A stretch of DNA of 64,000 nucleotides, from NCBI GenBank assembly GCA_010093605.1, contig MU004195.1:434001-498000 (forward strand), written 5' to 3'. Positions within the stretch are counted from its first letter, which is position 1. The number at the start of each line of letters is the position of its first letter. Source of the DNA: Lophium mytilinum. Its lineage: Eukaryota. A model generated the notes under the pieces. The model was not told where the DNA came from and made no database searches. It was given only the letters and a program-made list of their open reading frames with translations. Of the stretch, positions 3,371-44,369 are shown one piece after another. Both the position numbers and the translations under genes were made by a program.

Positions 3371-6300
3371 ATGTCCACGCCAGGTGGACAAGGATTCAGA
3401 GGCGGCCGCGGGACGGGCCGCGGCGATCGCGGCGGCTATCGTGGCGGACGTGGTGCTGGAGGAGCCGGCCGCGGTGGAGGCGACCGCGGGCCTGTCCAGG
3501 AAGAGGTGCAAATCTACGTGTAGGTCATCATCGACATACAATGCGCAGCTTCTGACTAACACCGACTCAGACCACCAGACAAAATTATCCCAGCGCCCAA
3601 CACGCACGTCGCACAAGTCGAGGATGCCATCCAGAAATCTGCAGGAGGTCCAGATGCTCTTGCAGCATTGACCATGACTGAGGGCTTCCCTCATCGTCCT
3701 GGCTATGGTACCAGAGGCACACCCGTGACGCTGTGGGCCAACTATGTCGAGATGGTTCCTCCGCCGGAGCTCACCCTATATCGATACGATATGGCGGTGT
3801 CACCAAGCGCCGCGGGCAAGAAGTTGACGCAGATCGTTCGTCTTCTATTAGAAACAGAAACGATGGCCCAATTCCGCTCCGACGTCATCACCGACTTCAA
3901 ATCCACTCTGCTCTCGCGCCGCAAGTTGGCAAGTGACGACTTCATTGTGCGAGTCAGATACCGTGTCGAAGATCACGACGAACCCCGGGAGGGTGCAACT
4001 CAGTACCAGGTCCGAGTGCAATACACAACTGCCCTGTCTACCGCTCAACTCGTGAACTACTTGGAGTCCACTGACATTTCCGAACGTCTTCATGACGTGC
4101 AGCCTCTCGTCCAGGCCCTGAACATATTCTTGAACCATTACGCAAAATCAACCGGGAACCTAGCGACGATAGGAGCCAGCAAGACCTTCTCTCTTGGCCC
4201 CTCGGCCGCTAAATGGGATCTAGGCGCCGGCCTGACCGCCTTGCGAGGCTTCTTCAGCAGTGTCCGACTTGCAACCTGTCGCATCTTGGTCAACGTGAAC
4301 GTTAGCCATGGAGCGTTTTATGACGCAATACCCCTCGAGCAGCTAATAACGAAGTATGGAGCTGCACATAATAACAGCAAGGGAAAGCTGGCAAAGTTCC
4401 TTGAAAAGGTCCGCATTCGAACCACCCATCTGCCGGAAAAGAAGAACAAAGCAGGCCAGGTCATTCATAGGATGAAGACTATCTTTGGACTGGCCAATAG
4501 AAATGACGGTCACGGTCTACCTCATCCACCAAGGGTGAGGGAGTACGGCGCTGGTCCAAAGGATGTGGAATTCTGGCTGGACAGTCCGGCTCAATCGAGC
4601 AGTTCGTCGACAGCGGCCAAAGGTGATGGTAAGAAAAAGGGGAAGAAGGGAGCCGCTAGCGGAGCCCCACAGCCGGCCTCAGGTGGCCGATACATCAGCG
4701 TCTACGACTTTTTCTTGCAAAGTAAGTCTCCCCCACCACAACGCGGAGAGCCTTTCTCATCTTATTGATAGCTTACAACATTGCCATTGCCAACCCAAGA
4801 GTCCCAGTGGTCAATGTTGGCAATAGGGAAAACCCAACCTACCTTCCTGCTCAAGTCTGTCACGTCATGCCTGGGCAGAACTCGAAAGCGAAGCTTGATG
4901 CTAACCAAACCGCACAAATGATACGGTTTGCCGTAAGGCGGCCAGGGGATAACGCTACCTCGATTGTTCAACATGGGCTAGAGACTGCCGGCCTTTCTCC
5001 CCATACTAATCCCCTGCTGGTATGTATTGGAGTGCCATTTCATTCTTATCGCTTACCTTGAAATAGACAAACTTCAACGTTTCGGTCCCGCAAAAGCTAA
5101 TCACCGTTCTGGGGCGCGTTCTTACCGAACCCAAAGTCAACTACAAGCAAAAGAACGCTCAAATCCGGCTTGGCAGCTGGAATATGATGAACTATAAAGT
5201 CAACACTGCCGGGAATCTAAAGAGCTGGTCATACTTACTGGTTTCATCCCCCGGAAAGAGGGACGCGTTCAATGATGAGCAAAGCTTGACTGAAGTGATG
5301 GGAAGGTTGCATAGCACACTGAAGGACGTGGGTATCGCTGCAAGCCCACCGGCCAAAGGCAAGAAAATATCGATCACCGGGCCCGACGACCCTCAGCTCG
5401 AAAACACCATCAAAGGCGCAGCTGGTGCTGGGCTTGCCCTGCTGTTCATTATTCTCCCGAGCGATAATGCTCCAGAGTATAACCGGATCAAGCAATACGG
5501 CGACGTGAAATACGGAATCCATACCATTTGCAGCTTTGGAAACAAACTTGCCAAAGAGAACGGCCAGGACCAATACTTCAGGAACGTTGCTCTCAAATTC
5601 AACCTGAAGCTAGGCGGCATCAACCAACTTGTGGACCACTCTCGTCTTGGCCTCATCAACGAGGACAAGACCATGGTGGTAGGAATCGACGTCACGCATC
5701 CCTCTCCCGGCTCTAAGTCCAACGCCCCAAGCGTAGCAGGCATGGTCGCCAGCGTGGACTGCTGGCTCGGTCAATGGCCTGCCGTGCTACGGATCCAAGA
5801 CCAAGCCCGAGCCGAAATGGTCACAGACTTAGGCGACATGCTGAAATCCCGTCTGAAACTCTGGAAAGAAAAGGGAAAGCACCAGGCGTTCCCAGAAAAC
5901 ATCCTCATCTACCGCGACGGCGTGTCCGAGGGCCAGTACAGCCTAGTCATGGACTCCGAACTCCCCCTCCTCCGCAGCGCATGCGCGGAAGTCTACCCAG
6001 CCCCAGACCAGAAGAAGGGCCTCCCGAACATAACCATCATCGTCGTCGGCAAACGGCACCACACGCGCTTCTTTCCCACGAAATTGGGAGATTCGGACAA
6101 ACTCAACCCCAAACCGGGCACCGTCGTCGACCGCGGCGTGACCATGGCCCGCAACTGGGACTTCTTCCTGCAGCCACACTCAGCGCTGCAGGGCACCGCG
6201 CGCCCGGCCCACTACTACATCGTGCTTGACGAGATCTTCCGCCGCCGCTACAAAACCGTGCCGGCACCCTTCAAGAACGTCGCGGATGTGGTAGAGGATC

Positions 6301-6530
6301 TGACGCATAGTATGTGCTATGCGTACGGCCGGGCGACGAAGGCGGTGAGTTTGTGTCCGCCGGCGTACTATGCTGATATTGTGTGCGAACGCGCGCGCTG
6401 CTATCTGAATGATGTTTTTGAGGGGTCGACGGATTCGGGGGCGGTTTCGGTGGCGGGGAGTGAAGCGCTGGTGGGGAATGCGGATGTGCTGATTCATCCG
6501 AGGTTGAGGGATGGTATGTTCTATATCTGA
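3371..6530 (+). CDS. qde-2: Argonaute, QDE-2-like (RGG N-terminus, N/PAZ/MID/PIWI)
   Basis: Exons 3371-3519, 3571-4721, 4772-5019, 5067-6530 with GT-AG introns that join in frame. Motifs: RPGYGTRG, NVALKFNLKLGG, GIDVTHP, YRDGVSEGQ, VGKRHHTRFF, QGTARPAHY, PPAYYAD. Confidence 0.96.
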
Positions 6531-9229: not shown

Positions 9230-10558
9230 CACGTGTAGTTTCAATCTTCCCGTGACCTAGCTTTGTCATCCTGGATCCGGAGTCTATAACTCCCTGCCCT
9301 TTGCCAACCTTTCATTCTTCGTGGTGGAAAAGAAGTCGGACTGGAGATTGCAACAAAGTTATTCCCTCTCCCCATGGCCTTGCAAAACACAGGATGAATT
9401 CCGTCAATGGCTGGATCTGGTGCTCGGTGTTCAATCTTCTTTATTGAGGTTTTTATTGGCGTTGAGAGTGGACTATCAACACATCTCATTCTCCAACACG
9501 ATGAAGTCGGCAGAGGGCTTATCCTTGATCGGTAAAGGTTGCATCGAGATGGTTAGCATCACTTCCCCATGAGGCCGAAGAGATTGACTCCCATACAGCC
9601 ATACTCCAGCTTCAATCGCTCGAGATGACTATCTCAAACTCTATGTGGCTACTATCCTCGCTTTCTTAGAAAGAAGCTCGCCATCATCACACTACCTAGC
9701 GTACCACCGCAACCTTCTTCCAGCTCCATCGGCAGTTTTCGTTCCTGTTATTGACACCCCCTACTCCCCCAACTCCTCCTTCAAACGCTACGCTATTGAG
9801 GTTGACACGCCCTCCAAGTGTTCATCTGGTCCTATGTGTTGCTCCAGCTCCAGCTCCATAAAACGGGCGCCTCGATGAGTTGAACCACCACAGCCCACCC
9901 ACACCCCATAGCAGCTGGGATAGTTTGTTGATGTTTGAACCTCCTCCATGTATTAGAGTCTTTCAGGGTTTTCTTTGGACCCACCACACCTCCCCTCCCC
10001 ATGTCGAAGAGAGGGCAAGCAGTTCTGAGCCTCCTCCATTCGAAACTAACAGAGCATCTTTTGACCCACCACACAACCACCCCATCATAAACTTCTCTCC
10101 AAGGGTCTGAACCTTCTCCATTCCGATGGTTGCCAGCTTGCGTTCGATCCACACCTCCCACCCCGTGGCTTTTAAACCTGCGATGGTTTTGCGCATCTTC
10201 CATGAAATTCTTTTTTTAGATTGTTGCAAGACTGCACCGCACCTCCCACTCCATCGAAACTGTGGTTTGCTTGTTTTGAACCTCCATGGATTTCCCACTG
10301 TGGCTTTTCGATCCCACCCCTCCCCCACGCCACGATCCTCCCACTCCATCCAGAGTTATTACCATCGAATTTGATCCTCCATCCGGTTCCAAGAGTGACA
10401 ATTTCGATCCACCACTCCCCCATCGAGCCCATGAAGCTGGCATTGCAACTTTTTTGATCCCCGAACCCCCAATCCTCCTTCCTCTGAAGAATTGACCTTG
10501 CAGCTACCAGGCGAGCCTTTATACCCCCTACCAAAGAAAAATATCTAGCTGCCACGTG
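9230..10558. repeat. Cassette cluster 1: one + and one - promoter/repeat-spacer cassette, convergent; the - cassette has ~17 spacers
   Basis: + cassette: CACGTG 9230, TATAA 9285. - cassette: CACGTG 10553-58, TATAAA 10523-18. On the + strand the array reads as repeated CCAT-N22-27-(T)TGAxC plus a C-rich linker from ~9726 to 10459. Confidence 0.85.
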
Positions 10559-11507: not shown

Positions 11508-14500
11508 TCAACGTCCCACGTTCCTGCCGCCCGTAGCCAACCGGTTGAAGTCATTCACCCTGTTAGCCAGCGCCAAGATCTTCCTCAGCACCGCTTGGCC
11601 AGGGCCCCTCGGCGTATTGAACGAGTGGTACGCAGTCGTAAGCCTCTCCGTGAGGAGCTGCATGATTCTCGGAACCACGTCAGCCTGAAGATCCGGGTCC
11701 TGCGGGTTAACGCTATCCAAGACGGCCTCTAGCCAGGTAAGCCGCTCGACGATGAGATTGTGGAATGGGTCGGTCACGACGACTGCAGATGACAGAGCGT
11801 ATAGGGCCGAGACGTGGGCGAGGTAGTCAGGGTTGCATCGGCAGAATATGGACTCAAAAAGGGCCGGTGGATTCGATGAGCGAATCCACTATGCATGTTA
11901 ACGGAGGCAGTGAACGATATATGGGGGATTACTTACCATCGATGTTGCTTCGCTGAAGTCGCCTAGTTGCAACAGCCTAGTGATTTCGTCCTCGGTCTCC
12001 TCGAGAGAGCTCCTCGGGGTCTGAGATTGGGCCTGAGACTTAGTGGGCGACAGTTCCGTGCGGGGAGCGGAGGTGGACGCAGAGCCAGGGCCACCAGCGT
12101 ACGAGTGTTGCGCCTCTTCAGCGGTCCTAAGCATGCTCATTTGGAAGCTCTCCTGGGAAGCAGCCATGGATTGTACCGTCCCAGTGAGCCCTTGCACGAG
12201 CTTTGTGAGCTGCTCAACCTTTTGGGTCTCCTTCTGGCGCTGAAGGTTGGCGTCGCGCAACTGCTCAGCGAACCGGTTATCCATCACCTGAGTGAGATTG
12301 TTCAGCGCCGGGCCCAGTGCGACAGAGAGCGAAGACGTGACAGTTGCTTCGAAATTCGCTGTGACCTTCTTCGAAACAGCATCCGAAATCTTGCCGAGGA
12401 ACTGCGGATTCTGGATCTGATTCTGCAGAATTACGCTGAGAGATGGGAGAACCGCCTGGAGTTCGCCTGGAAGAGTGCCCGAGATGGCTTTCTTCAGCGT
12501 CTGCTGGAGTTCCTTGTTGATAGTCTCGTTCACCGAGTCAAGCAGCTTCGGCAAAACGGTTGTCTGTACAGACTTCGTGATGATTTCATTGAAGCTTCGC
12601 TCAACATTCTGCGAGAGTGTTTCGGAAACCAGGCGGAGAATGGCCTCTTGCTTGGCATTACCGGCCGCCACGTGAGCGCGATTGTCGATATCAATGCGCT
12701 TGTGAAGCGCCTCTACCTCCTTGGTTAAAGTCTTCGAAAACTCCGCAGAGATATTTTCTTCGAGCTTCTTCACATCCGGCGGGGCAATTGCAGAGCTAAC
12801 AGGTGTAGACTGCTGCAGAACTTGGCTGAGCAGTCGGGTGGCCCATTCCGGAGCCTCTGTTTCTGAAGCTTTTGATCGAGAGTTGTCGGAAGACTGCGGC
12901 AGGATAGAAGGCGAGCTAGCGCTCTGTGCTGCTTGAGCATACGACGCGGAGGAAGACGTGACAGTTGATTCCTTGGCCTTGGCACTGGCCTGGGAGCCTT
13001 CAGTGTTCGATTTGTCCTTCTTCTTCTTTTTCTTCTCTAGCTTTTCAGGAAGCTTTTCAGGGCCATTGATAATCGCAGCCCGAGCAGCGTCCTGCTTGCT
13101 CTCCACCTTCGCCAAAGTAGAAGCCCTCATTGCAGCTTCTGATGTAAGCGACTGGCGAGTTGCTGCGCTACTCTCTTTCTTGATGCTCTCGCGAGCTGAT
13201 CGATCAGACCCTGGCTTGCGAGCTGACGTTTCACCGGCAGCCGAAGTATCCTCGCTAGCAGAAGACAATTCGATCTGCTTGATGGTACCAACAACAGCAA
13301 CACCAGCCTTCTCCGCATCAACGGGATACAAAGCTTCGCCGTCGTTCTTCCATCCAAGATCTGCCTGTCGAACAGCTACCACACTGACACCCTTGGACTG
13401 CATGACATACAACTCAAAACGAGGCTTGTCTTGAGGCTTGGCGTCATCCGGTGCAGAGCTGACTGGGTCGTTGAGCATCTGAAGACTACGGAGCTGGCCC
13501 TTGGAGGAGAAGGAGTACTCGTGAATGCTGGTCATGATTGCGGTTGCGTTCACGGCCGGTAGGGGCCTAATGCTAGGCTCCTTCTTCGCCAGCTGCGAGA
13601 TGTATGATGCCTGGGAGAAGGGCTGCAGATTGTAACGCGGGCAAGACACGTGGATGAAGAAGACGGAGTTCCTAGTAGGATGTCCAACGGCCAAAATCCC
13701 TGTCTTGGGGTGGAAAGAGACACTGCAAATGGCGTCCGACTCCTTCTCGTGTGGAAGATTGATTTCCTGAACAGGCTTTCCGAGACCGAGGTCCCATAGC
13801 TGGAAGGAGTGATTCTGCTTCATACCCACCATGACATATCTCAACGCAATGCCCTTGGCGCACGGGCGCTCCTTGTCGAAGAAGAAGATGGATGTGGGCC
13901 ACGATTTGACGTTAGTAGACGTAGTGTGATGCTCCGTGATCGGTTCGCGGATTTCAACAGGGTCGATCTCTATTGTGGAGTTTCCGAGGTGCTCCAAGGT
14001 CAGCGGACGAATGTCCCAGAAGCGCATCCTGCCGGCCTTATCCAGGGATGCAATGACTGTATCATCCTCACTGAAGGCGAAGTCCTTGCCCGCCTTGCCA
14101 GTCAATATCTTGAGAGGGCGATCCTTGAGGTAGGCCTCGGTGTTGCAAATCTGAGTGTCCGGATCCGTGTATCTCGGCGAGCGTGCGACGTTAGGAAAGA
14201 TGATGTGAATCGCCTTTCCACGGCCAACAGCGAAGAACTCGGGGTGTCGGCAGCTAGGCTTGGCGCGCGTCTTCAGTTGTCCACCAGATGTGTTATCATC
14301 TTGGGTAGCGGCAGGTGGAAAGATGACGCTGTGGCCAGGGAGGAGTTCAATAACGTCATCCTTGGTGTTCACAGCAGTCCAAAAGACCGCTCCATTGACA
14401 CCAATCCCAAGGATGGTCTCCGGAGTCCCCTGCGATGAAGCAAGGTCGGCAGAAGGAGCGGAGCAGGTGGCAAGATTGAAGATGCGCTCTTTGTAGTTCT

Positions 14501-16237
14501 GAAACACCTGTCGGTACTGGCCGTTATCCTGGCGAATGATCCGGAAACCATTGGTCTTGCCGCCGAGAGCATAGACAATGTAAAGCTTGGTGGCGGTGAC
14601 CAGGCAACGATCAATCTGATCGAATTCCTTCTTCAACCTCGCAACGTCCATGAAAGCCGACGGACGGAAGGAAGGACCCGACAAACTCTTGTTGACCGTG
14701 ATGGCGGCGAACGCTCTCATGGGGAATTTGAAAACTTGGATCTGCTGTTCTTCATCCTTGGCCGGGCTATCTTCAGCTTCCGCGCTCTCCCAGCTGTCCA
14801 CAACGTCCGCGTCACCGAGGTCAGCCTGGGCGACTTCTTCGACCACCTCTTTCAAGGCATCGGCCATTGGTTTCGGCAAAGTCTCTTCGATGTCGTGGCG
14901 AGTCTCGGGATCATCCAACTCCTTCTTGATTGAGATTGCTGCCTCCTTCATGGCCATCTCAAGTTCCTCGACTTCTTTCGCTTCAGCATTGGCCTTGTCA
15001 TGACCGTTTGACTGTTTGTCCGCTTGTGCAAGGGCTTCCTCCACTTGCTTGTCGACTTGTTCGCCGATGCCACTCACGGCCTCGGAAACCGTCTCGTGCG
15101 GATTTTGAGTAGGGAAGTGCGAAGTCGCACCCGGTGAAATCTTGCGGGTCTTCGAGGCGGGACCCGAGACTTCGGATCCGTTCTCTTTGCCGTCTCCTCC
15201 CGACGAGGCATCCCTGCCATGCTTTGGCTTCAGTATTTCCATCTTGCGGGTCGGCGCGGCGGCGCTGGTGCGATCGGGCAGAGGGGTGCGATTGCGAGGC
15301 GACGCGGCGTTGTTGGCGCGCTCGGGGACGGGAGTGCGGTTGCGAGGCGTCGCAGCCGAAAGCTGCTCGAAAGGATTGACGTAAGTGAACATCGAGGGCT
15401 TGGGAGGCGCCTGAGGAGCTTCGAAAGTCGAGTCGCCGGTCTTGCTGTCACCGAAAACGCGGATGGGCAATTCGGTGTCTCCACCTGCAGGTCCAGAAGA
15501 GAACGTCTCCAGCTTCGCGTCTTCCAAATCGTGGGCAAGATCGTCGACCCGTGTAGCGGAGGAGGCAAGAAAGGCCGAGACCGGTATTGCGCCTCCACGG
15601 AGGTGAGCAGAAAGTTCGCCCTGGGGAGGTTTGGGGTGGTTGAGCAGTCGCAGCAGCAAGTCCTGGGGAGCTTCATTCGCGGGCGTGGCGTGTTCGGCTC
15701 GAGCGCTGGGCGCGGGTGAGGCAGCAGCCGATGAGCGAGACGCGCCCTGCGACGGCTTGCGCATGAAAGAGGCAACCAAGTCGGAGGCAGAGGTCGTGCG
15801 ACCGTGTGCGCCCTGTCCTTCCGCCATTGACAAGTTCTGCACGGACTGCTGAGATGGTCGGCGCTCCGGGGCGCTGGCCTGATTCAGAGCTCCGGGGCCA
15901 TTGAACCTCAGCAGGTTGAGCAGGCTTGCCGTCTTATCGGAGCTGCTCTGACCAGGAGCTGGCGTGTTATTGACCGAGGTGTTTGGCGACATGACGGCGG
16001 ATTGGTTATGAGGTTGCGGGCCTGAAGGCGCGGGCGAGTAGACGGGCGAGGAAACGGAGGGCTGGTGGTAGTGAGGAGCTTGTCCAGACGTATCTGGCGA
16101 GGTGACTCCCTGCTTCGCAAGGCGCGCAAAGAGCTCTGTAGCAGGTGTTAGCACGGTGAACAAGCGTCGAAGTTCGAAGCTGGATCTATTGAATGAGGCT
16201 GGCTAAAGAAGAGCCATGTACCGTTGAGGTCCGCCAT
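11508..16237 (-). CDS. EDC4/Ge-1/Pdc1-like enhancer of mRNA decapping (P-body scaffold; beta-propeller plus coiled coil)
   Basis: Exons 16237-16222 (MADLN), 16135-11937, 11888-11508. Recalled fungal family motifs DVARLKKEFDQIDR, GGQLKTRAK, HPEFFAVGRGK, GKAGKDFAFSEDD, followed by a long helical C-terminus. Family call is from recall, not a search. Confidence 0.75.
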
Positions 16238-20975: not shown

Positions 20976-23170
20976 CACATGTCCATCCCGTGACCTCGGC
21001 TTGGCGGGGGTATAAAACATCTCCGCTGAAGCGACTCGATCCCTTGTCCAGAGGTGGAGGCTGGGGCGGTGGTTTCAACAGAAAACATGGTACACATACA
21101 TGGTCGTCGTTGTGGTTGGATCAAAAATTGCTGACGAGTCCTTCATTATGGCTGGGGGGGGAGTGAAGTGGTGCAACACATGCGTCGCCTTTGGGCAATG
21201 GAGAGGGGGTGTGGTGCGTTAGGTGCGGCGACGGTACCTGTGTTCTCAGTGATTCGAGTCAGCGGTGTCTACCGATGCATCTCTTCCCTTCCGTCCATTG
21301 GTGGTGAGATCGATTGGGGTGAGCAAGCTGGCTGTTAGAGACGATCGTCAACTTGGTTGCATGCTGGATGGCATCATTACACCAGGCAGACACCCCACAA
21401 CATTTACGTTTCTGTAGGATGGTTTTGCACGCCCCAATCCACCCCGATTCACAGGCCCCATCGCCCTCTTTTTTGATCCGGCGCTTCCACTCCCATGGCC
21501 AAGACGTTGTGGAGGTTTTTGTCCCTCAAAGCAAGATCCACAGACTCCTACAGGACGAAGTCTCCGCAACCAACAAGGAGAATTTATAGTACAACCGCAG
21601 GGTAGAACACGTGAAGCGTGAGAACTCAGCCCCGAGACTCCGCCCTCACTCACCAAGCATCGGTTCAGCGTCGTCCGCCAGGGGCGGTCGAGGGAATGGG
21701 GAAAGCACCTGACTCTCACGTGGACCGGGACCTCTATTCTCCCCCGCCGATGGGCAGGTATAAAAGGGCCAGTGCTAGGTGGCCGACCCCTATTTGCTAT
21801 TTGGCCGATGCTGTATTGCTATCTAGCCTACCAACCCCCCTGCGGGCCTTTCACCGCGTTCTGATTGGCTCGGATGGCTCTTAGGAAGGTTCGGATATTT
21901 TACTCTGCACGTGTAGTCTTTCCATTTTATCTACAGTCTTCCTATTTTAGTATAGCTACGTGTATAGCTACTTGCCTACCTATCTACCTGCCTGCCTAGG
22001 AGAATGCCTAAACTGTTAATTTCGCACCTAATAGAGGCCTTCTCTCTATCGCTGCTAGCCTACAAGCACCTACGTAAAGTCCTTATTAATAAGATCTTCC
22101 GCATACTTATTAACTTCCTTAATAGCGGGCTTACGAGCTGCTTTATAAGGCTGCGGCTGGCCTCTGCTCTTTTATTTTATGCTCCGGAGGAGCCGGCCCG
22201 GTAAGCGAGCCAATTAGAACGCGGTGAAAGGTCCGCAGGGGGGTGGGTAGGCTAGATAGCAATACGGCATCGGCTAAGTAGTAAAAAGAGGTCGGCCACC
22301 TAGCACCGGCCTATAAAAGCCCCTCCCCGTCTGAGATTCCTTTTTCAGAGATTGTACGGGTTGGGAGTCAGAAGAGCAACAACGGAGAGAAAGAGCGAGC
22401 ATGCTGCAAAAGAATCCCATGAGATCTCGATGAATGGCTGGTCTGGGATTGCTTTCTTCTGTAACACCTGCAGTGCAAGAGCAGAATGGCTGGCCTTTAA
22501 GCTCTACACCATGCTGATGGCGTCCAACAACCCTAAAGGTACAGGGAAGTCCCACTAGAAACCTTTGCGCATACGCAGCAGCAGGTCGAGGCGACGTCTA
22601 CCATCTACAACAGATGGTGCCATTCAGCGCTCTGCAAATCTCTCTCCGCCAAATCCCGAACGCGCCCATGACATCGTTTGTGTCTCGGTTTTACACCAGA
22701 CCCAGCGACACCATGAAAGGATTCTTTTCTTGCTTTTATATCCCGCCCCCAGAGCCATGACAATGCGTACATATTGGGTTTTGATCCTTGGAAGCACCCC
22801 GAGAGTCGCTGGACAACAAATCTACAGCTGACGAGGCGAAGATTTATAGGAGAATTGGAGAGGACACGTGAGATACATGAGACACGTGAACGGAGCAAGA
22901 TCGCGGGCAAGGAGTTCACGTGGTAGAGCGTTCAGGAACGACCTGGGACTTCACATTCACGTGAACGACCGGGATCCTCAGGAGGTATAAATTCGGCATG
23001 TTCTTCGGTTTGTACCTAGTCTTCATGGGTCGAGAGGTGGGAGATTGTATCCTAGGGGAGTACATCGCGATGATGGAGGCAAAACGGGACAATGCAGCGA
23101 AGAATGGAGGTGTGGATCAAACTGGACGGACCGCATGCCCAATGGCTGCAGTGTTGGTTTTCAGAAGATA
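20976..23170. repeat. Cassette cluster 2: five alternating (+,-,+,-,+) promoter/repeat-spacer cassettes
   Basis: TATA boxes at 21011(+), 21588(-), 21759/22312(+, duplicated by a MITE), 22848(-), 22986(+). CACGTG at 21608, 21717, 22865, 22883, 22917, 22958. 23-nt spacers at 21077-21099, 21175-21197, 23081-23103, 23119-23141. Confidence 0.8.
21767..22311. mobile_element. 545-bp non-autonomous TIR element (MITE) with ~106-bp TIRs and an 8-bp TSD TATAAAAG; Mutator- or hAT-like
   Basis: 21767-21872 is the reverse complement of 22206-22311 with few mismatches. TATAAAAG flanks both ends (21759-66, 22312-19). TpA-rich interior, no transposase ORF. Confidence 0.92.
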
Positions 23171-23505: not shown

Positions 23506-24861
23506 ATGCCTCGTACTAAACGTCCACTTGCTGAAGCTGATCCCAATGCCTCCGCTGGCCGGGTGACACGCTCCAAAGTGGTCAGATCCGACGGACCCAA
23601 GGGTAAAGAAAACAAAACGGCGTCAGGGGCGTTTGAAAGCAAGAAGTATAGCAACAAATCGAAATCCTTGACGAAACACGCGGAGAAAGATGTAGGGCTC
23701 GAGGGATACGCCAACGTATCAGACAATCGACTGGGATGGCTCCTACTGGATCGAGGACTTCCCTATGGTAGAACGGACGAAAGGGACGTGATGATCATGC
23801 GTCTCGAGATATCAGATGCACTCGCGAAGGAATTGAACGTACCACTTTATATCCCGCCAAACTTCCCGCCGTCCAAAGCGGACAAGAGCAAGGCCGAGGC
23901 CATCAATCTCAGGAAGCAGACCGATTTTGCCTCCAAGGACAATAGCAAGCTCCGGTCGATGCTAGAAGCCCGCAAGCTGTCTACACTAGGACCACGGGAT
24001 GAGCTAGTTCAGCGCTTGGAGGCGCACCCGATGGTCGACTATGAGCAATACACCACGGATGAGTTATCGGCAATGGCGTCGCGACGACACATGAGAACGG
24101 GCGCCACTGGTCCGAAGGCTGTGAAGATTGCACGTTTGCGCATGAATGACGAACTAAAACGCGATACGGGAAATACGCCAGAAGGTGAATTATATGGCTG
24201 TATATCTGCCATAGAAATGTTTGTAGGCGCGTTTCGGCGAGAGAAAAATAGAGTCCTACGCGGCGACTACTCATTCGTTAAAAGTTTCGGCTGTCGGCCT
24301 GCACCAACTCTCAAGGAGCTTCTACACGAACGCAACTTACCGGAGTCTGGAAATATAGCAACAAAGTTGGAGCGGTTGCGTAAGGACGATGCATCCAGGG
24401 GAACGCCGTTTGCGACACGCATCTTCGAAAAGCAGATCAGCGATGCACGGTCCGAATGGGAGAGATTACGAGTGAAGTTCGAAGAATTTACAGGACGTCC
24501 TCTTCGATGTGTTTCGGAGGATCTAAACGTGGAAAACAAGTTGCATCAACGCGACCCAATCTACAACGCCCCAAAAGATGACCCTCCAGTCAAACACATG
24601 GTTAACTATGACTGGCGCAGTTCGCACTGGGCTGATCGGAGCTTGCATCAGCTGCTGGATATTGCAAAGAGTCGGGGTATGCCACATGCCAATGGAGCAC
24701 CAAAGGCTGCAATGATCAAGTGGCTCGAGACGGGGGAGCTTGACTACGAAGAATACTACACTACAGCCCTTTACGCTATGTGTTCAGAAAGAAACATCAG
24801 CGTCAAATCGGCCGAGAAGTAGGTCGAGATCATTAGACTGCTGAAAGAGCATGAAGACTAG
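23506..24861 (+). CDS. Multi-SAP-like repeat protein; in-frame TAG at 24820-22 interrupts the last repeat
   Basis: Repeated SAP-like helices (LRSMLEARKLSTLGPRDELVQRL; LKELLHERNLPESGNIATKLERL; LYAMCSERNISVKSAEK*VEIIRLL). Confidence 0.65.
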
Positions 24862-25400
24862 CTCACTCTTAGCGCCGGCCATACTCACTTCAAGGATCCG
24901 GAGCAGATTTCAGTGACGTTAAGACCTGGGCACGATGTATTGCGCATGAACAGATCTGTTCTAGAAGAGGCATGATTTATACTAGCCCTGCACGAACCTA
25001 TTTCTATCCGTACAAAGGCTAGCCAGATGCCATTTACTGTCTTCCAACTTACAGTCACGTGACTCATAGAGATTATAGGTTTACAAAATAATTCATCAAT
25101 ATTAAGCTTGATCTCACCGTTCCAGCAAGAAGCACAGCGGCATTCATGTACCGTTCTGCTTCCACAATTGAACTCTCGCGTCGTTTTGAGGTCCTTTGAC
25201 CTTAGCGAAACATTCAAAGTACCCTCCGGCACATTCCAGCCATTAGGGAAGCGGCGCTGCTGTCATCCACAAAAAGAACGCTAAAACGCAAACGCTCACC
25301 ACAAAGTGTCGCAACGTACTCCATCTCATCGGTGTCTGCTTTCCCAATATTTCCTAATTACTATCCTAAAATACAACAAGAACAACGAAGTATCGGCGTT

Positions 25401-37640: not shown

Positions 37641-38182
37641 ACGGCGTGTCTCTCGACTAGCCTGCCACAAACCAGCAACCCTCATCTCCTCCAAGACCTA
37701 CTCGCAGCAGGAGATCGTCCCCACACGGCACTATTTAGAGCTCGTAATATCCGGACAAGTATGCGGATAGTTGAGAAGATACGGACAGCTGGGGAGATGC
37801 GCACAGCTCCGCAAAAGCAGAAAGCGGCAGAAAGACCTCCGTGAAACCACAAGGCGAAGACAGCAGTCAAGTGCACGCGCAAGACCGCAAAACCTTCAAC
37901 TGCCTCCTCAAACGGACTAACAAGGTCAAAAAGGCGCGACATATCAGATCGGCAACAGCGAAAGAAGCTACGAAGCAGTGCGGCAGTAGGGGCAAAGGTG
38001 GGACGGAGGTTAAGAATATAGCGAATGTAAACCAGTGGCATGTCCTAGGTATGTTATTTTCAAACATGGCGTTACCGGCACGATGTATTGTATCTAGGGT
38101 ATGAAGGGATGAATTTCAGGTCCCGTCCATTACCAAAATCAATATCTATACCGGCCACATGTGTTTCCGACCTCGCTTTCAT

Positions 38183-40894
38183 CACGTGTCCCACGTGCCC
38201 TTGCTGCAAATCTCCTATAAAACCCTCTCCTCCCTCGACCAGATTCCTTCTCCATGGGTTCGGTCCTCTCGAGGATCAAAAGAAGATCTCAGGGTACATC
38301 ATGGTGCTGGGGGTGGGAGATCGAAAACTAGGTTTTCAGCATGTGATGGTGGCTGTTGCGGTCTGGGTGTGCAAAATAGCGAAGACACAAGCCATGGAGG
38401 AGCGAGTCGGCGGTGTCTCCAGCCCAGTGATGATGATGTCTCGCAAAAGAGCTAGATGCAGCTTTTCTCCAGCAGCCAATTCGATAAAGGAGAAAGAAGA
38501 GCCCTACGAGTGATGTCGAGCAGCATCGTATAGCAATCGCGAGGAAGCCGGACGCAGGCACCGACTCCACTCGGCCATTTTACGGCTATCCAACTGGTTT
38601 TGCTCACACATGTAAGGTCTGGGCGCATTGACTCCACTCGATCATCAGACACTCGAGGCTATCGTTTTGCTCCCACCATTATTGACCATGTCCGCCGTTT
38701 TTCAAACACCCCATTTCCACGCCTCGACGACGAACTGAAGAGGGGTAAGAGGTGGGAGGTAGAGGTTTTATACCCGCCAGAAGACGTTTGGAGCTTGAGG
38801 GCACGTGGGGACCATGTGCTTTGAGAAATGTAACCGGATGAACGATGTCGTCATGGGCCTATTCGATGCAGAAAGACTGGGAAAGGGGGTTGTCACGTGT
38901 GCCACGTGCACGCCTTCCTGGGACTTCCTATAAAAGCCTCTATGCCTCTCGTCTCGACATCTTCTGCAGCGGGGTAGGCTTCTTTAGGAGGAAAAACGTC
39001 GATGAACTTCAACCATGGTTCTGGCGGTGGGAGATCAAAGCTTAGGGCCAATCACCCCATGGAGGTGTGTTGGGTCTGTGGAGCAGAAGCTGGAAGGCCA
39101 GACTTTCAATGAAGGCGTGTCGGAGTACGCAAAAGCCTGGTGATGACGTGTAGCAAAAAGAGACGACGCCGCTCTGATTCATCCTAGAACGAAAATAGAG
39201 AGGGAAGGTAGTTAGAGATGCTGGAGAGCAGCAGCAGCTCGTAGTAAAGGGGCTGCGACACGCGCTCCCGACCGCCCAGCCATCAATGGCTTGCTCTTCA
39301 ATTTTTGCTCCCCCATGGAAGACATCGTTAAGGAGGTCTTAAATTCACCCTTGCCTCACGTCGAATAGAGAACGAACAACCCCATCAGCGCGATCTTGGG
39401 GTTTTATACCCAGCAGCAGGAAGCCCAAGCGTGACGCTCACGTGCATGTCACCTGCCCACATTCGTATCTTTCGCATCTTACCATGAGAGACCTCCTTCC
39501 AAAAATGCCGTCCAGCAGACCGGTGGGGAGAGCGAAATCACGCGTCCCACGTGCCTCCCACCTCCCACATCCTATAAAACCTCCCCTTCCACGCAGCAAC
39601 TTCTTCTGCAGCGGGCCTTGTTCTTCTCAGAATCAAATATGCTTGAGCGGGATAAGATGGAGGAGGATCAACGATCCCAAGAAACGAGGCCATGGTCCGG
39701 TGGGAGGTCAAAATCATCTACCCGGACTATTATCGTTCGGCGGTGTTCTCGAAAAAAGTTGCTGGGGAGTCCTTACATGGAGGGGTGCGCTGCGGGAGGG
39801 CTGATGGTGGCTAGCAGTATCTAAGGTTGCTGGTGGGGATTAGCAGGGCTAGGAGATAAGAATGAGGAAGTTGAAGGAATAGTGGAGCGCAGCAACGCGA
39901 GGTGGTAAGAAGGTGGACACTCCGCGCGCCCATGGGCAATGTTGGAGCGATGTTTTTGCTCCCACCATGGCACGGCGAGGCGCTACAATCTGTTTTACTC
40001 CCCCGAGTGCACACCTTGTTGAAGCACGGAAGAGAATAGGAGAGCAGAAGAGAGGTTTTATACCCATCAACAGCCAGGCACGCGGTAGGGCTTTGAGACC
40101 ACGTGAGAGCCACGTGCTTCCGCTTACTGCAACCTGCTTTGGTCTGTGCTGCTCAGGTATTCTACATCTTGGGAACGAGCGTGACCGATCACGCGCCTTA
40201 CGTGCCCCCCTTCCCTCCATCTACTATAAAACCCCAACCTCCCTCGCAGAAACTTCTTCTCCAGCGGGATTTGGGTCTCTGGAGGAGCAAAATCGGGCTC
40301 TCCACGCTCGAATGGATCTGGGGTAGAGATTAAACCAACGATCGTTACTGCAGCATGGCTGGAGGCTGTGGGTTGGTGCAAAACAAGTAACACCGGGTGC
40401 CTATGGCCGGGATCGGATTGAACTCGGAAACAGAGAGACGCGATGGAGGAGTGCTTGTAATGTTGTAATAATGGTTAGCATTGTCTATAGGTGTCAGTGG
40501 TCTTCAAAAGCGTTAGAGGGTTGAATGGCGTAAAGAGGATATTGTGGTTTTCGTGTTTACCGAGGGAGGTTTCCAAAGAGTAGATGGAGAGAATGATAGA
40601 CATCATCAGCAGCCTGAGATGGCGATCGGTGACGACGAGCGGATGACGCTGGCTCAGCAACCAGCAACCAGCCACCATGATATCCCATCGCTTGCCTGTT
40701 TGATCCAGCACGCGGGAGTCCTCCATCATTCTTGTCTGGGCGGATTTTGCTCCCCAGCTTCCCACATGCGTCGCCTGGCAGGAACCTTTAGATATCCTCG
40801 GAATTGCCCTTTGATGGACAAAGATCCGAGGGGTGGAAAAGGTCTTATAGCTAGCGGACAACCGATGGGAGGGTCTGTGCTCGGAATGCACGTG
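38183..40894. repeat. Cassette cluster 4: eight alternating promoter/repeat-spacer cassettes
   Basis: TATA at 38216(+), 38772(-), 38929(+), 39408(-), 39573(+), 40062(-), 40225(+), 40849(-). CACGTG at 38183, 38192, 38802, 38894, 38903, 39439, 39548, 40100, 40111, 40889. 23-nt spacers at 38278-38300 and 38323-38345. Confidence 0.88.
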
Positions 40895-41179
40895 CAGGTC
40901 AGGCGGTTCGTGTGTTGAAAACGAAGCATGATGAAAGGCGATACTAGGGTATGGCAAGAACTCGAAATATCGCACGCGGGATTTATGAAAGTTATGAAGA
41001 GATATGTGATTTAGACAAGAATGAAAAAAGTATATATACCACATGCCACCTAGCCATTCCTCGGTTGAGCATATTCAAAACCTGGCCTATATCCAACCAA
41101 CCCACAAACAATGCCCGCTTGCACGTACTCAGCCATCCAACTCGCACGCACAACAACTTCCCAACAAAGAACCCTATCA

Positions 41180-42343: not shown

Positions 42344-44369
42344 TCTGGACGAGAGGGAGATATTTGGTGAAGTGAGGCAGTGGTAGAATGTTTTGTAGTG
42401 ATGCTGGACTCGTCTGTTGTGGGGCGGTGAAAGTTTGGTTGAGTGAACGTCAACAGACTACGGCTAGCGCTTCCACCCGAGGGGAGGGCAGGTGGGTGGT
42501 GCCTGGCTCGTTCCGCAGGCAGATCCAAGCGCAGATACACCAATCGGGGCTGCTGTTTTGGCGGCGGACCTGCGGGCGTGAAACACCAGGACACCAGCTT
42601 GAGTGGCGATGGAGGACAGCAGACTTTGCAGCCAACCTCGCGAGCAGGCAGTGGTGGTGTTTCTTACAGAGAGCCACGTCGAAGTTGTCGACGCCTGGAA
42701 TGGTCACACGGTGTGAGGTGCTGATGGTCTCGACCCGTGTGCTGCCAAGCACAGTGTCATGAGGTTGAAGAGTCATCTGTTTGTTTCGTCCTCGGGCTTT
42801 CACTTCCAAGTGGGATGCATTCACTACAACATGCTCTGTGTTGCTTCCCCCTATTCATTCAGAACGGCTTATGAGCCGAGGGTGCGTTTGTTCGAGATCT
42901 TGAGGATCGAAGGTAGGTTGCCGGAAGGTTGACTTTCTAGGCATGTACACTAACAGTATTGGTATTCGACATCTACATACAATAATAAGCTGTGGTCTTC
43001 GTTATCTTCGTAAACACCATTTCGAGCTGAGAATCTTATGTCTTACGAATGGTTCGACAATATCTCCGACCGACATCTTTGGTACCAGGACTCATCAAAA
43101 TGGTAATCCCATGAACACTCTCTGTTTCATCTCTGAACGGAATCCAATTTTCGACGGAGTTAGGCATAAGTGCTCGATGACATCCACATGTGACGGATCG
43201 GAGATCTATTTACAGCAGATTCTATCCGAAGGATCGATCGGGACTTGAGAATCGCTCAAAATAATTTTCTCTTCGTCAATGCCCCAATCAGAGCCGACTG
43301 AGCCCAAAAATCAGACAAAGGAAGAGGCCCTACGTCGAAATCGATTTCGCCCCAACGGCGCCTTCTATCCCAACGAAAGCGAACTACGGTAATACCATCG
43401 ATAGAATGTTTAAGTTGTTCTAGAAACGGTAAGGTACAAATTCAGAGAGTTGTGGGAACAAGGGTAGACACCATCAATTGGACATTGAAATCAAGAGATC
43501 ATACAGATGCATACGGTATCCTCTGCATCCTCCGATAAAAAGACGACTATGTTGAGTGCCGGGGCAACAGCTCACCGATCCCACGACACAGTCCAAGCAG
43601 CATACTCCCCGTTTTCAATCCTCGAGCCTGGAATTCCATCAACCCGATCACTCAACAATGGTGCCTGCTCATAATACATTGCAGCATTTCCCTAGCGTTC
43701 TCATAATTCATAAGGTTTCGCTCATCAATCCTGCTGTCGCGTGTCGACGGTATGATAGAGCGAGTTCTACTTGAGGTGAATGCTGACAAAATACTGACTA
43801 TGAGATTGAGCGTACTCCCTTCCAACAAAGTTAGCGTTGAGCTTGTTTTATTAAGTGACTTGACATCACATAGAAGTGTCTGTGTTCTGTGCGTGGAGGA
43901 ACAAGATCTCGAAGATACACCTGCCGCCTAGCGCATGTTGGTCGCCGAAAATCTCAGGGTACATCTCAAGGTACATCCTTAGACCATTCAGTGTACTTCC
44001 AAAGCTTCAAATAGCCGCTTCAGAGAGCAGACTATATCCAGGTGCATACGAAGACCAATCCAGAAGGAAAACCCCATTTAGCATAGATCTCATACTCATC
44101 ACTTATTAGCCATGTCATGGTATATCAAGTAAAGACGTCGTTTGAGCGTTTTAAACGTATATTATGAATACGAACCGAGAGGTACTCGTAGCAGAGCAGC
44201 TACATCTCCTGGCCCTTTCCCGGACTCAAGCAACCCCAACAATCCTCGCTGCCCGGACCAATAGCATCCTCCCATGGGAACATCACCGACTCCAATAACC
44301 CGCGGACAAAGAAAGCAGGCGTCCCAGTTGCCTCCGTCATTACCCCAATAGTCCCCAACCTATCCCCAT

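Follow-up and report, generated by a model that had tools for sequence, protein, structure and literature searches.

Non-coding repeat-spacer genes dispersed in the Lophium mytilinum genome share a helically phased E-box/TATA promoter

We analyzed a stretch of 64,000 nucleotides from the wood-decay-type fungus Lophium mytilinum (GenBank assembly GCA_010093605.1, contig MU004195.1, positions 434,001 to 498,000 of the forward strand; hereafter the window, whose own numbering is used below) and found that it carries members of a large non-coding gene family, spread over the genome, in which an E-box/TATA promoter with helical phasing heads repeat-spacer arrays. The family is transcribed at a low level and is spliced in at least one case. 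In each gene, or cassette, the promoter is followed by an array of units, a unit consisting of ATGG, a G-rich block, GGATC, and then AAAA plus about 19 unconstrained bases before the next ATGG. We tentatively read these arrays, with a probability of roughly 0.42, as polycistronic small-RNA precursors that would be cut at a 23-nt ruler for Argonautes, a logic like that of PIWI-interacting RNAs (piRNAs).

An earlier note on this DNA had described a recurrent promoter in which CACGTG precedes TATAAAA and a pyrimidine-rich motif, and all motifs that it quoted (at 38244, 38961, 39601, 40253 and 29402) are present. CACGTG is the E-box of basic helix-loop-helix (bHLH) factors, of which the genome has 10 matches. 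Between 38183 and 40270, plus-strand E-boxes lie at 38183/38192, 38894/38903, 39539 (CACGCG)/39548 and 40190 (CACGCG)/40199 (TACGTG), and plus-strand TATAAAA at 38216, 38929, 39573 and 40225. The window as a whole holds 43 CACGTG against 13.7±3.7 in 200 dinucleotide shuffles, and CACGTG stands 15-56 nt 5' of TATA[AT][AG] 18 times against a mean of 0.47 and a maximum of 3 in 200 such shuffles. Sixteen of these 18 pairs head arrays. One of the remaining two, at 21759, is parted from its own cassette by an inserted element; the other, at 63201, is unrelated AT-rich DNA. The latter region (62787-63568) is repeat-like, with its unrelated CACGTG-TATA pair at 63171/63201, and a HET-domain gene lies at 59111-61867.

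The four plus-strand promoters noted in the span are real, but three on the minus strand (TATA at 38772, 39408 and 40062) had been missed, and the text was silent on the arrays 3' of the promoters. Its estimate of about 23 promoters compares with 21 candidate cassettes in the window by our hand list, at least one scoring array junction being present in 20 of them; a shared-promoter family does exist, but it is genome-wide and far larger than 23. The statement that no coding gene follows was borne out, as the longest ATG open reading frame (ORF) starting 30-330 nt past TATA is at most 84 aa in 20 of the 21 cassettes, and 128 aa in the remaining one.

In this span convergent and divergent pairs of cassettes alternate, with about 500-620 nt between the members of a convergent pair and about 160 nt between those of a divergent one. 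Promoter 1 (38183-38254, plus strand) has two CACGTG, 33 and 24 nt 5' of the TATAAAA at 38216, and a pyrimidine tract; the rule in PMC4046813 (this and other papers are cited from excerpts) predicts +1 at 38254, the A of CATGG. Array 1 (38254-38450) has junctions, each a GGATC box, a 21-23-nt spacer and ATGG, at 38278, 38323 and 38373, and falls in an RNA contig (38229-39110) of depth 4.8. Facing it on the minus strand, the cassette at 38575-38807 has CACGTG at 38802 (35 nt), TATAAAA at 38772 and junctions at 38702, 38668 and 38601. Cassette 2 (38894-39160, plus), back to back with the 38772 promoter, has CACGTG at 38894/38903 (35 and 26 nt), TATA at 38929, a predicted +1 at 38968 and junctions at 38992, 39037 and 39085; its convergent neighbor (39280-39444, minus) has CACGTG at 39439 (36 nt), TATA at 39408 and junctions at 39341 and 39306. 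Cassette 3 (39539-39800, plus) carries CACGCG/CACGTG (34 and 25 nt), TATA at 39573, a predicted +1 at 39610 and junctions at 39635, 39670 and 39755, and is faced by a minus-strand cassette at 39930-40116 (CACGTG at 40100/40111, 43 and 54 nt; TATA at 40062; junctions at 39991 and 39957). Cassette 4 (40190-40450, plus) carries CACGCG/TACGTG (35 and 26 nt), TATA at 40225, a predicted +1 at 40263 and junctions at 40289, 40332, 40380 and 40420, and the convergent cassette beyond it (40670-40894, minus) has CACGTG at 40889 (45 nt), TATAAGA at 40849 and junctions at 40748 and 40701.

We then searched the genome (43.4 Mb, 49 contigs). TATA lies 45-200 nt 5' on the same strand in 128 of 179 junction clusters. 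After removal of 7 promoters from two loci fetched by E-box pattern, 121 array promoters remained; 86 of them have CACGTG no more than 75 nt from TATA, compared with 8 of 619 TATA sites in array-free DNA. This agrees with the earlier proposal of non-coding transcription units under one shared, stereotyped promoter. In the 86 promoters CACGTG is nearly always at least 22 nt 5' of TATA, and the distance peaks at 24-25, 34-35, 43-46 and 54 nt, in line with a 10.5-bp helical phasing (Rayleigh R=0.74, n=86; the nominal p of ~3e-21 is optimistic given shared ancestry). An independent genome-wide count gave 103 sites at 24-25 nt (control 15), 32 at 29-30 nt (control 24) and 134 at 34-35 nt (control 26). 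In a prospective test on the first unfetched sites of each list, an array was present at 13 of 39 in-phase sites and at 0 of 20 off-phase sites (Fisher p=0.0025; the array call gives 2 false positives in 400, and one further in-phase site was not located in its stretch). Twenty more E-box+CTATAAAA sites, from 25 unfetched, yielded 6 that scored and about 5 others that are degenerate by eye. In-phase sites also head protein-coding or unexplained DNA, so the grammar is enriched at the array family, not exclusive to it. We identified 147 promoters directly, and the family probably comprises 200-300 genes genome-wide.

A start 30-47 nt past TATA (mode 38) is predicted by sequence rule in 106 of 128 promoters, most commonly at CATGG (14/106). 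A second motif, GCTGACTAAC or TGACTCA, which we take to be AP-1/Yap-like, stands between E-box and TATA in the L010, L014, L017, L018 and L020 promoters, and some promoters of this kind lack a perfect CACGTG. The promoter motif itself is ordinary Pol II (RNA polymerase II) grammar of filamentous fungi. In Aspergillus nidulans, CACGTG is among three enriched motifs and lies more than 50 nt 5' of the start, TATA precedes the start by 30-45 nt, and transcription begins at CA downstream of a pyrimidine tract (PMC4046813). The array promoters share this CACGTG placement, and in sequence they fit the TATA, pyrimidine tract and CA arrangement at their predicted starts. Unlike the A. nidulans promoters, for which the excerpt of that paper reports neither E-box-TATA phasing nor a non-coding family, they show an in-phase spacing that predicts an array.

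A genome-wide pattern search for such units gave 39 matches, spread over many contigs, against 14 in the control. A second genome count (101 vs 78 in the control) was uninformative, and its matches were used only to choose 60 stretches, which leave out 6 places unlike cassettes. In 58 of 94 strict boxes, ATGG follows at 22-24 nt (mode 23), counted from the base after TC, under a selecting pattern that permitted roughly 19-27 nt. With the distance left free between 10 and 40, it is 22-24 nt in 112 of 138 junctions at the 60 new loci, a figure that includes the one 22-24-nt-type junction for which each locus was chosen. A two-part profile found 347 junctions in 683 kb and 1 in reversed sequence, and the largest array in the fetched loci has 44 parsed junctions. 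The conserved block varies from 10 to 44 nt, while the variable segment stays at 23±1 nt. All 347 variable 19-mers (spacers) are unique; the best pair agrees at 14/19, and 24 pairs agree at 13/19 or more compared with 5-18 in column shuffles. Block identity averages 0.45 within arrays and 0.36 between arrays. Spacer composition is near-genomic, with positional biases (A at -8 in 149/347, A at -2 in 32/347).

Neither spacer self-folding nor a hairpin gave a signal, the minimum free energy of block-spacer-block being -13.0 against -13.0 to -13.3 with spacers permuted. Rfam had 0 matches and ARAGORN no tRNA or tmRNA in the window; at six array loci, Rfam gave no match at gathering score and one sub-threshold mir-49 match outside the arrays. 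A sigma-70 scan was null. Reading GGWTCRAAA as a tRNA T-loop or B box was rejected, as it has no closing stem and no terminal C.

RNA run X1 represents spliced RNA, with joints at the introns of neighboring genes. Two minus-strand joints fall in one cassette cluster only, at spliceosomal introns with GT, a GCTGAC branch site and AG: 29232-29295 (GTTAGT...GCTGAC...AAG) and 29630-29684 (GTATTG...GCTGAC...AAG), the latter just past the 29959 array. The exon between them is antisense to the 29375 cassette, and the read-through transcript seems to originate in the 29959 cassette and to cross the 29375 cassette in antisense direction. Read-through also occurs at cassette 1, since the contig 38229-39110 covers this cassette and its convergent partner and crosses the next divergent promoter. 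The contigs carry no strand or start information, and bins without RNA cover (21001-21667, 34341-35007, 40344-41000) are not evidence of silence. We take the cassettes to be Pol II, not Pol III, genes, since two canonical introns are spliced out of one cassette transcript.

Long arrays have array-specific blocks, often two to four types in alternation, which shows tandem duplication of units. Among 1555 within-array pairs, the 45 whose block interiors are more than 80% identical have spacers at background (0.47 vs 0.45); in one pair, 40-nt blocks are 91% identical and the spacers are at background identity. At L159 and L214, whole units were duplicated along with their spacers (17/19). L159 also holds three spacer pairs that are 14-17/19 identical and have blocks 60-65% identical, so spacers can be better kept than blocks. 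Spacers thus descend by duplication at least sometimes; usually they diverge to randomness at kept length, and one array looks constrained. This divergence fits diversifying guides and drifting linkers about equally, save for L159 and the positional biases. The copies have diverged beyond the reach of BLAST (12 self-hits in the window; L020 matches only itself), and maintenance of the phasing and the 23-nt spacing despite this divergence implies that selection on each copy is needed. There are 28 convergent neighbor pairs, 22 of them less than 900 nt apart.

Based on these features, we propose a working scheme for the cassettes. A bHLH factor on CACGTG may contact TBP on the same DNA face, which the 10.5-bp phased spacing would allow, and transcription would start about 38 nt past TATA at a predicted pyrimidine/purine step, reading into the array. 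The transcript would consist of units of AUGG, G-rich block and GGAUC followed by AAAA plus about 19 free nt, as the DNA shows; low-level spliced RNA is seen at one cluster. The two short motifs may act as a ruler marking the 23±1-nt variable segment, which could be excised directly or once convergent or antisense transcription makes it double-stranded. The putative product is a 23-25-nt small RNA for an expanded Argonaute set. The repertoire would grow by tandem duplication of units, which is observed, and of whole genes, as in piRNA repertoires and not by CRISPR-style capture, and spacers would presumably diverge fast after duplication.

Several observations favor this small-RNA reading: the fixed length of the variable part beside a conserved block of variable length, the uniqueness of all 347 spacers together with the better-kept L159 spacers, the convergent pairs with spliced antisense read-through across a cassette, and the protein set. 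Sixteen Piwi matches fall at about 10 loci of the genome, one of them stop-riddled; there are also 4 RNA-dependent RNA polymerase (RdRP) loci, and tandem RNase III domains occur at 2 loci. Filamentous ascomycetes normally have 2-4 Argonautes, and 23-25 nt is the size of Dicer products. Arrays lie 3-4 kb from two Argonaute sites. One is the window gene at 3371-6530 (plus; ArgoN, L1, L2 and Piwi; best homologues 60-72% identical), a candidate effector 3.2 kb from the 10523 array. The other is a trio of tandem divergent Argonaute genes (G000:C1:829218-839602; L147, L148) with catalytic-motif residues visible in alignments, which ends 3-4 kb from a divergent array pair.

Other results weigh against it. 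Around the other six Piwi loci, the 10-20 kb fetched held no scoring array, so the Argonaute-array linkage, with two sites near and six not, is only suggestive. The 148 ORFs near arrays include no recurrent neighbor family, nor any of the three Nop-domain loci of the genome. RNA covers the arrays at a depth of ~0.4-10 compared with 30-600 for genes, and what is seen may be read-through and not discrete array transcripts. Within arrays, conservation extends over blocks as long as 40 nt, beyond the need of a simple cut signal, and the seed of a sense guide that starts at the box would hardly vary (CAAAA). In composition, spacers are nearer to the mRNA-sense than to the antisense strand (by 0.41±0.05 bits, sense minus antisense), which speaks against pairing of sense spacers with mRNA; this lean would suit an antisense product starting with U opposite the A of ATGG. 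Spacers had no targets above chance in 733 kb (1.7% of the genome), where 70 matches of at least 16/19 compare with 99-119 for random genomic 19-mers, and five spacers searched genome-wide gave one 1-mismatch and two 2-mismatch matches against 3 control matches. The best non-self match among these five is that of the first spacer of cassette 1 (38282-38300), with an 18/19 copy at 43947-43965, 5.7 kb off, which has unrelated flanks and adjoins a short tandem duplication; random 19-mers give 1-3 such matches per set, so chance is possible.

A stronger form of the small-RNA reading, which we regard as rather unlikely, is a eukaryotic repeat-spacer guide system, in which the transcripts of 200-300 co-regulated Pol II genes, cut at short linear motifs, would supply about 1000 unique 23-25-nt guides to a lineage-expanded Argonaute set for piRNA-like surveillance. 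In its boldest form, some spacers would be replaced by capture, and this would explain the 90%-identical 40-nt blocks with unrelated spacers.

The foremost rival, itself unlikely, is that the intact long transcript serves as a scaffold or sponge, whose AUGG-G-rich-GGAUCAAAA blocks bind a protein while the 23-nt segment is a neutral linker of fixed length. Well-kept, array-specific blocks beside spacers at random identity are in line with a scaffold, as are the near-genomic spacer composition, the lack of targets above chance and the appearance of the RNA as long spliced contigs. However, a flexible single-stranded linker would rarely need ±1 nt precision next to a block of 10-44 nt, and the positional biases of the spacers and their better conservation at L159 speak against it as well. 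Alternatively, the units could be DNA elements in which GGATCAAAA-N19-YS/ATGG forms an internal mini-promoter and start, giving short G-rich capped RNAs, the idea nearest to nematode 21U-RNAs. Promoter spacers typically have a fixed length and a free sequence, A at -8 resembles the yeast start-site rule, the bases before ATGG are initiator-like, and CATGG is the commonest predicted true start. We nevertheless consider this improbable: the box-to-ATGG distance is 28 nt, while TATA-to-predicted-start peaks at 36-41 nt in the same genes; predicted true starts have a pyrimidine tract 5' and internal ATGGs do not; A and B boxes fail; and the arrays depend on the upstream E-box/TATA promoter. Still less probable is a functionless non-autonomous repeat family, or decayed tandem repeats, with generic promoters. 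Visible tandem duplication of units, many degenerate arrays and low expression would suit such relics, but phasing and 23-nt spacing persist in copies too diverged for BLAST, and no terminal repeats or transposase neighbors were seen at arrays.

The earlier note had also hinted at Pol III transcripts like the microRNA-like RNAs (milRNAs) of Neurospora, and the cassettes did not support this. The major milRNAs there are Pol III products missing from poly(A) RNA (PMC3547838), and genes of the milR-1 to -4 type would be conceivable here in so far as milR-1 uses TATA-like elements without A or B boxes (PMC3547838) and the box GGWTCRA looks like the beginning of a B box. This origin is very improbable given the Pol II core promoter grammar, the two spliced GT-AG introns and the lack of a hairpin. 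By the usual consensus patterns, the A box (TRGYNNANNNG) occurs in 2/347 junctions and the B box (GWTCRANNC, scored by its terminal C) in 110/347, and the U6 genes of this genome have a different layout, with a complete B box and a T-run. Lastly, the ATG that opens every block might be the start codon of micropeptides, which we find hardly credible: the unit period modulo 3 is flat (29/32/40, n=101), A is not overrepresented at -3 (0.23) and is underrepresented at -2/-1, and the longest ORF in the spliced RNA, 105 aa, starts within the array.

Beyond the span described above, the window holds its longest array at 9726-10558 (minus; CACGTG at 10553, 35 nt; TATA at 10523; 12 junctions parsed), which adjoins an EDC4/pdc1-like gene (11898-16202). 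One cassette cluster occupies 20976-23160 (TATA at 21011+, 21588-, 22848-, 22986+ and 22312+) and another 28508-31462 (TATA at 28549+, 29168-, 29375+, 29959-, 30122+, 30762- and 31428-). Between these two clusters, at 23507-26739, one RNA contig spans two genes, one with multiple SAP domains and one for a RAI1/DXO-like nuclease (E 1.6e-5, a score below the Pfam cut-off). In the first cluster, a 545-bp element (21767-22311) with 106-bp terminal inverted repeats (96/106 matching) has duplicated its 8-bp target, the TATAAAAG box of the cassette promoter. It cuts the 22312+ cassette from its E-box, and this cassette is the sole one of the 21 without a scoring junction; the loss suits decay after promoter loss, in a single case. 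A 64-bp direct repeat (83% identical) lies at 36316-36379 and 38056-38119, the latter just 5' of cassette 1. The aspartyl protease of the window is 100% identical to a Lophium mytilinum protein and 80-84% identical to proteins of Glonium, Lepidopterella and Cenococcum, which places the fungus among the Dothideomycetes.

The promoter alone is ordinary; what it marks is a family outside Rfam and the fungal small-RNA classes compared. No description of such arrays was found in the literature searched, with most subscription journals outside it, and the excerpt of a 2026 review of fungal small RNAs names no such class (PMC13136243). Among the metagenome matches listed (at least 119 loci, 14 in full and the rest by score) there was no promoter-led array, a chance-saturated search that is uninformative on distribution. 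If the spacers are guides, fungi would have independently evolved a motif-punctuated polycistronic guide library, in effect a natural multiplex-RNA interference cassette; such libraries are otherwise known from prokaryotes and, in another form, animal piRNAs. If they are linkers, this would still be a long non-coding RNA family of 150-300 members with a protein partner to be found. Either way, the phased E-box-TATA rule can be used directly to look for such genes in further genomes and lets helical-phase activation be tested in a natural setting.

We compared the arrays with known systems. The earlier note had likened the promoters to those of nematode 21U-RNA loci, and part of the analogy stands: in both, many Pol II loci under one upstream motif carry unique short sequences, forming a large, diverse repertoire (PMC6436959). 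Yet 21U loci are monocistronic, each giving one ~28-nt Pol II transcript under the small nuclear RNA (snRNA)-derived Ruby motif for a Piwi-clade effector (PMC6436959). The arrays here are multi-unit, with up to 44 junctions, internal punctuation and long spliced RNA, and their promoter is unlike that of local U1/U2 genes. We inspected 12 of 49 snRNA matches (16 U1-like, 9 U2, 3 U5 and 21 U6 across contigs); CACGTG+TATA occurs at 0/6 U1/U2 loci and CACGTG at 2/3 U5 loci, so the nematode snRNA-promoter route is not repeated. Several U1/U2 genes share a GCTGATGAGTCA-type upstream motif and a common downstream element.

Among fungal classes, Neurospora milRNA and Dicer-independent small interfering RNA (disiRNA) loci are intergenic small-RNA loci (PMC3547838, PMC3764098), as the arrays would be, and at disiRNA loci convergent transcription plays a part (PMC3764098), as it would at many cassette pairs here. 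The major milRNAs, unlike the arrays, come from Pol III hairpin precursors (PMC3547838), and the excerpt on disiRNA loci mentions no repeat-spacer punctuation (PMC3764098). Dictyostelid Class I RNAs, a looser parallel, are also a lineage-specific multicopy non-coding family with a promoter element at fixed distance, a short conserved motif and a variable region; they differ in that these ~60-nt RNAs occur singly, not in arrays, have a terminal stem and are possibly Pol III products (PMC7919456).

The layout resembles that of CRISPR and of TIGR arrays (PMC12045711), in which a leader or promoter precedes alternating conserved and unique fixed-length segments; some arrays here alternate two block types. 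With CRISPR they share unique spacers of fixed length (here 23±1 nt), but the repeats are degenerate and variable in length, duplicated spacers occur, and no protospacer excess was seen in the 733 kb or with the five spacers searched genome-wide. TIGR spacers are 9-12 nt and TIGR repeats 8-12 nt (PMC12045711), compared with 23-nt spacers here, and in contrast to TIGR-Tas (PMC12045711) there is no dedicated neighbor protein and no adjacent Nop-domain gene. TIGR repeats begin with UG and end with CCA (PMC12045711), which is matched here only on the strand opposite the promoter (UGAUCC...CCA), by motifs too short to weigh. Taken together, the arrays resemble CRISPR and TIGR in layout and piRNA loci in repertoire, but belong to none of these systems.

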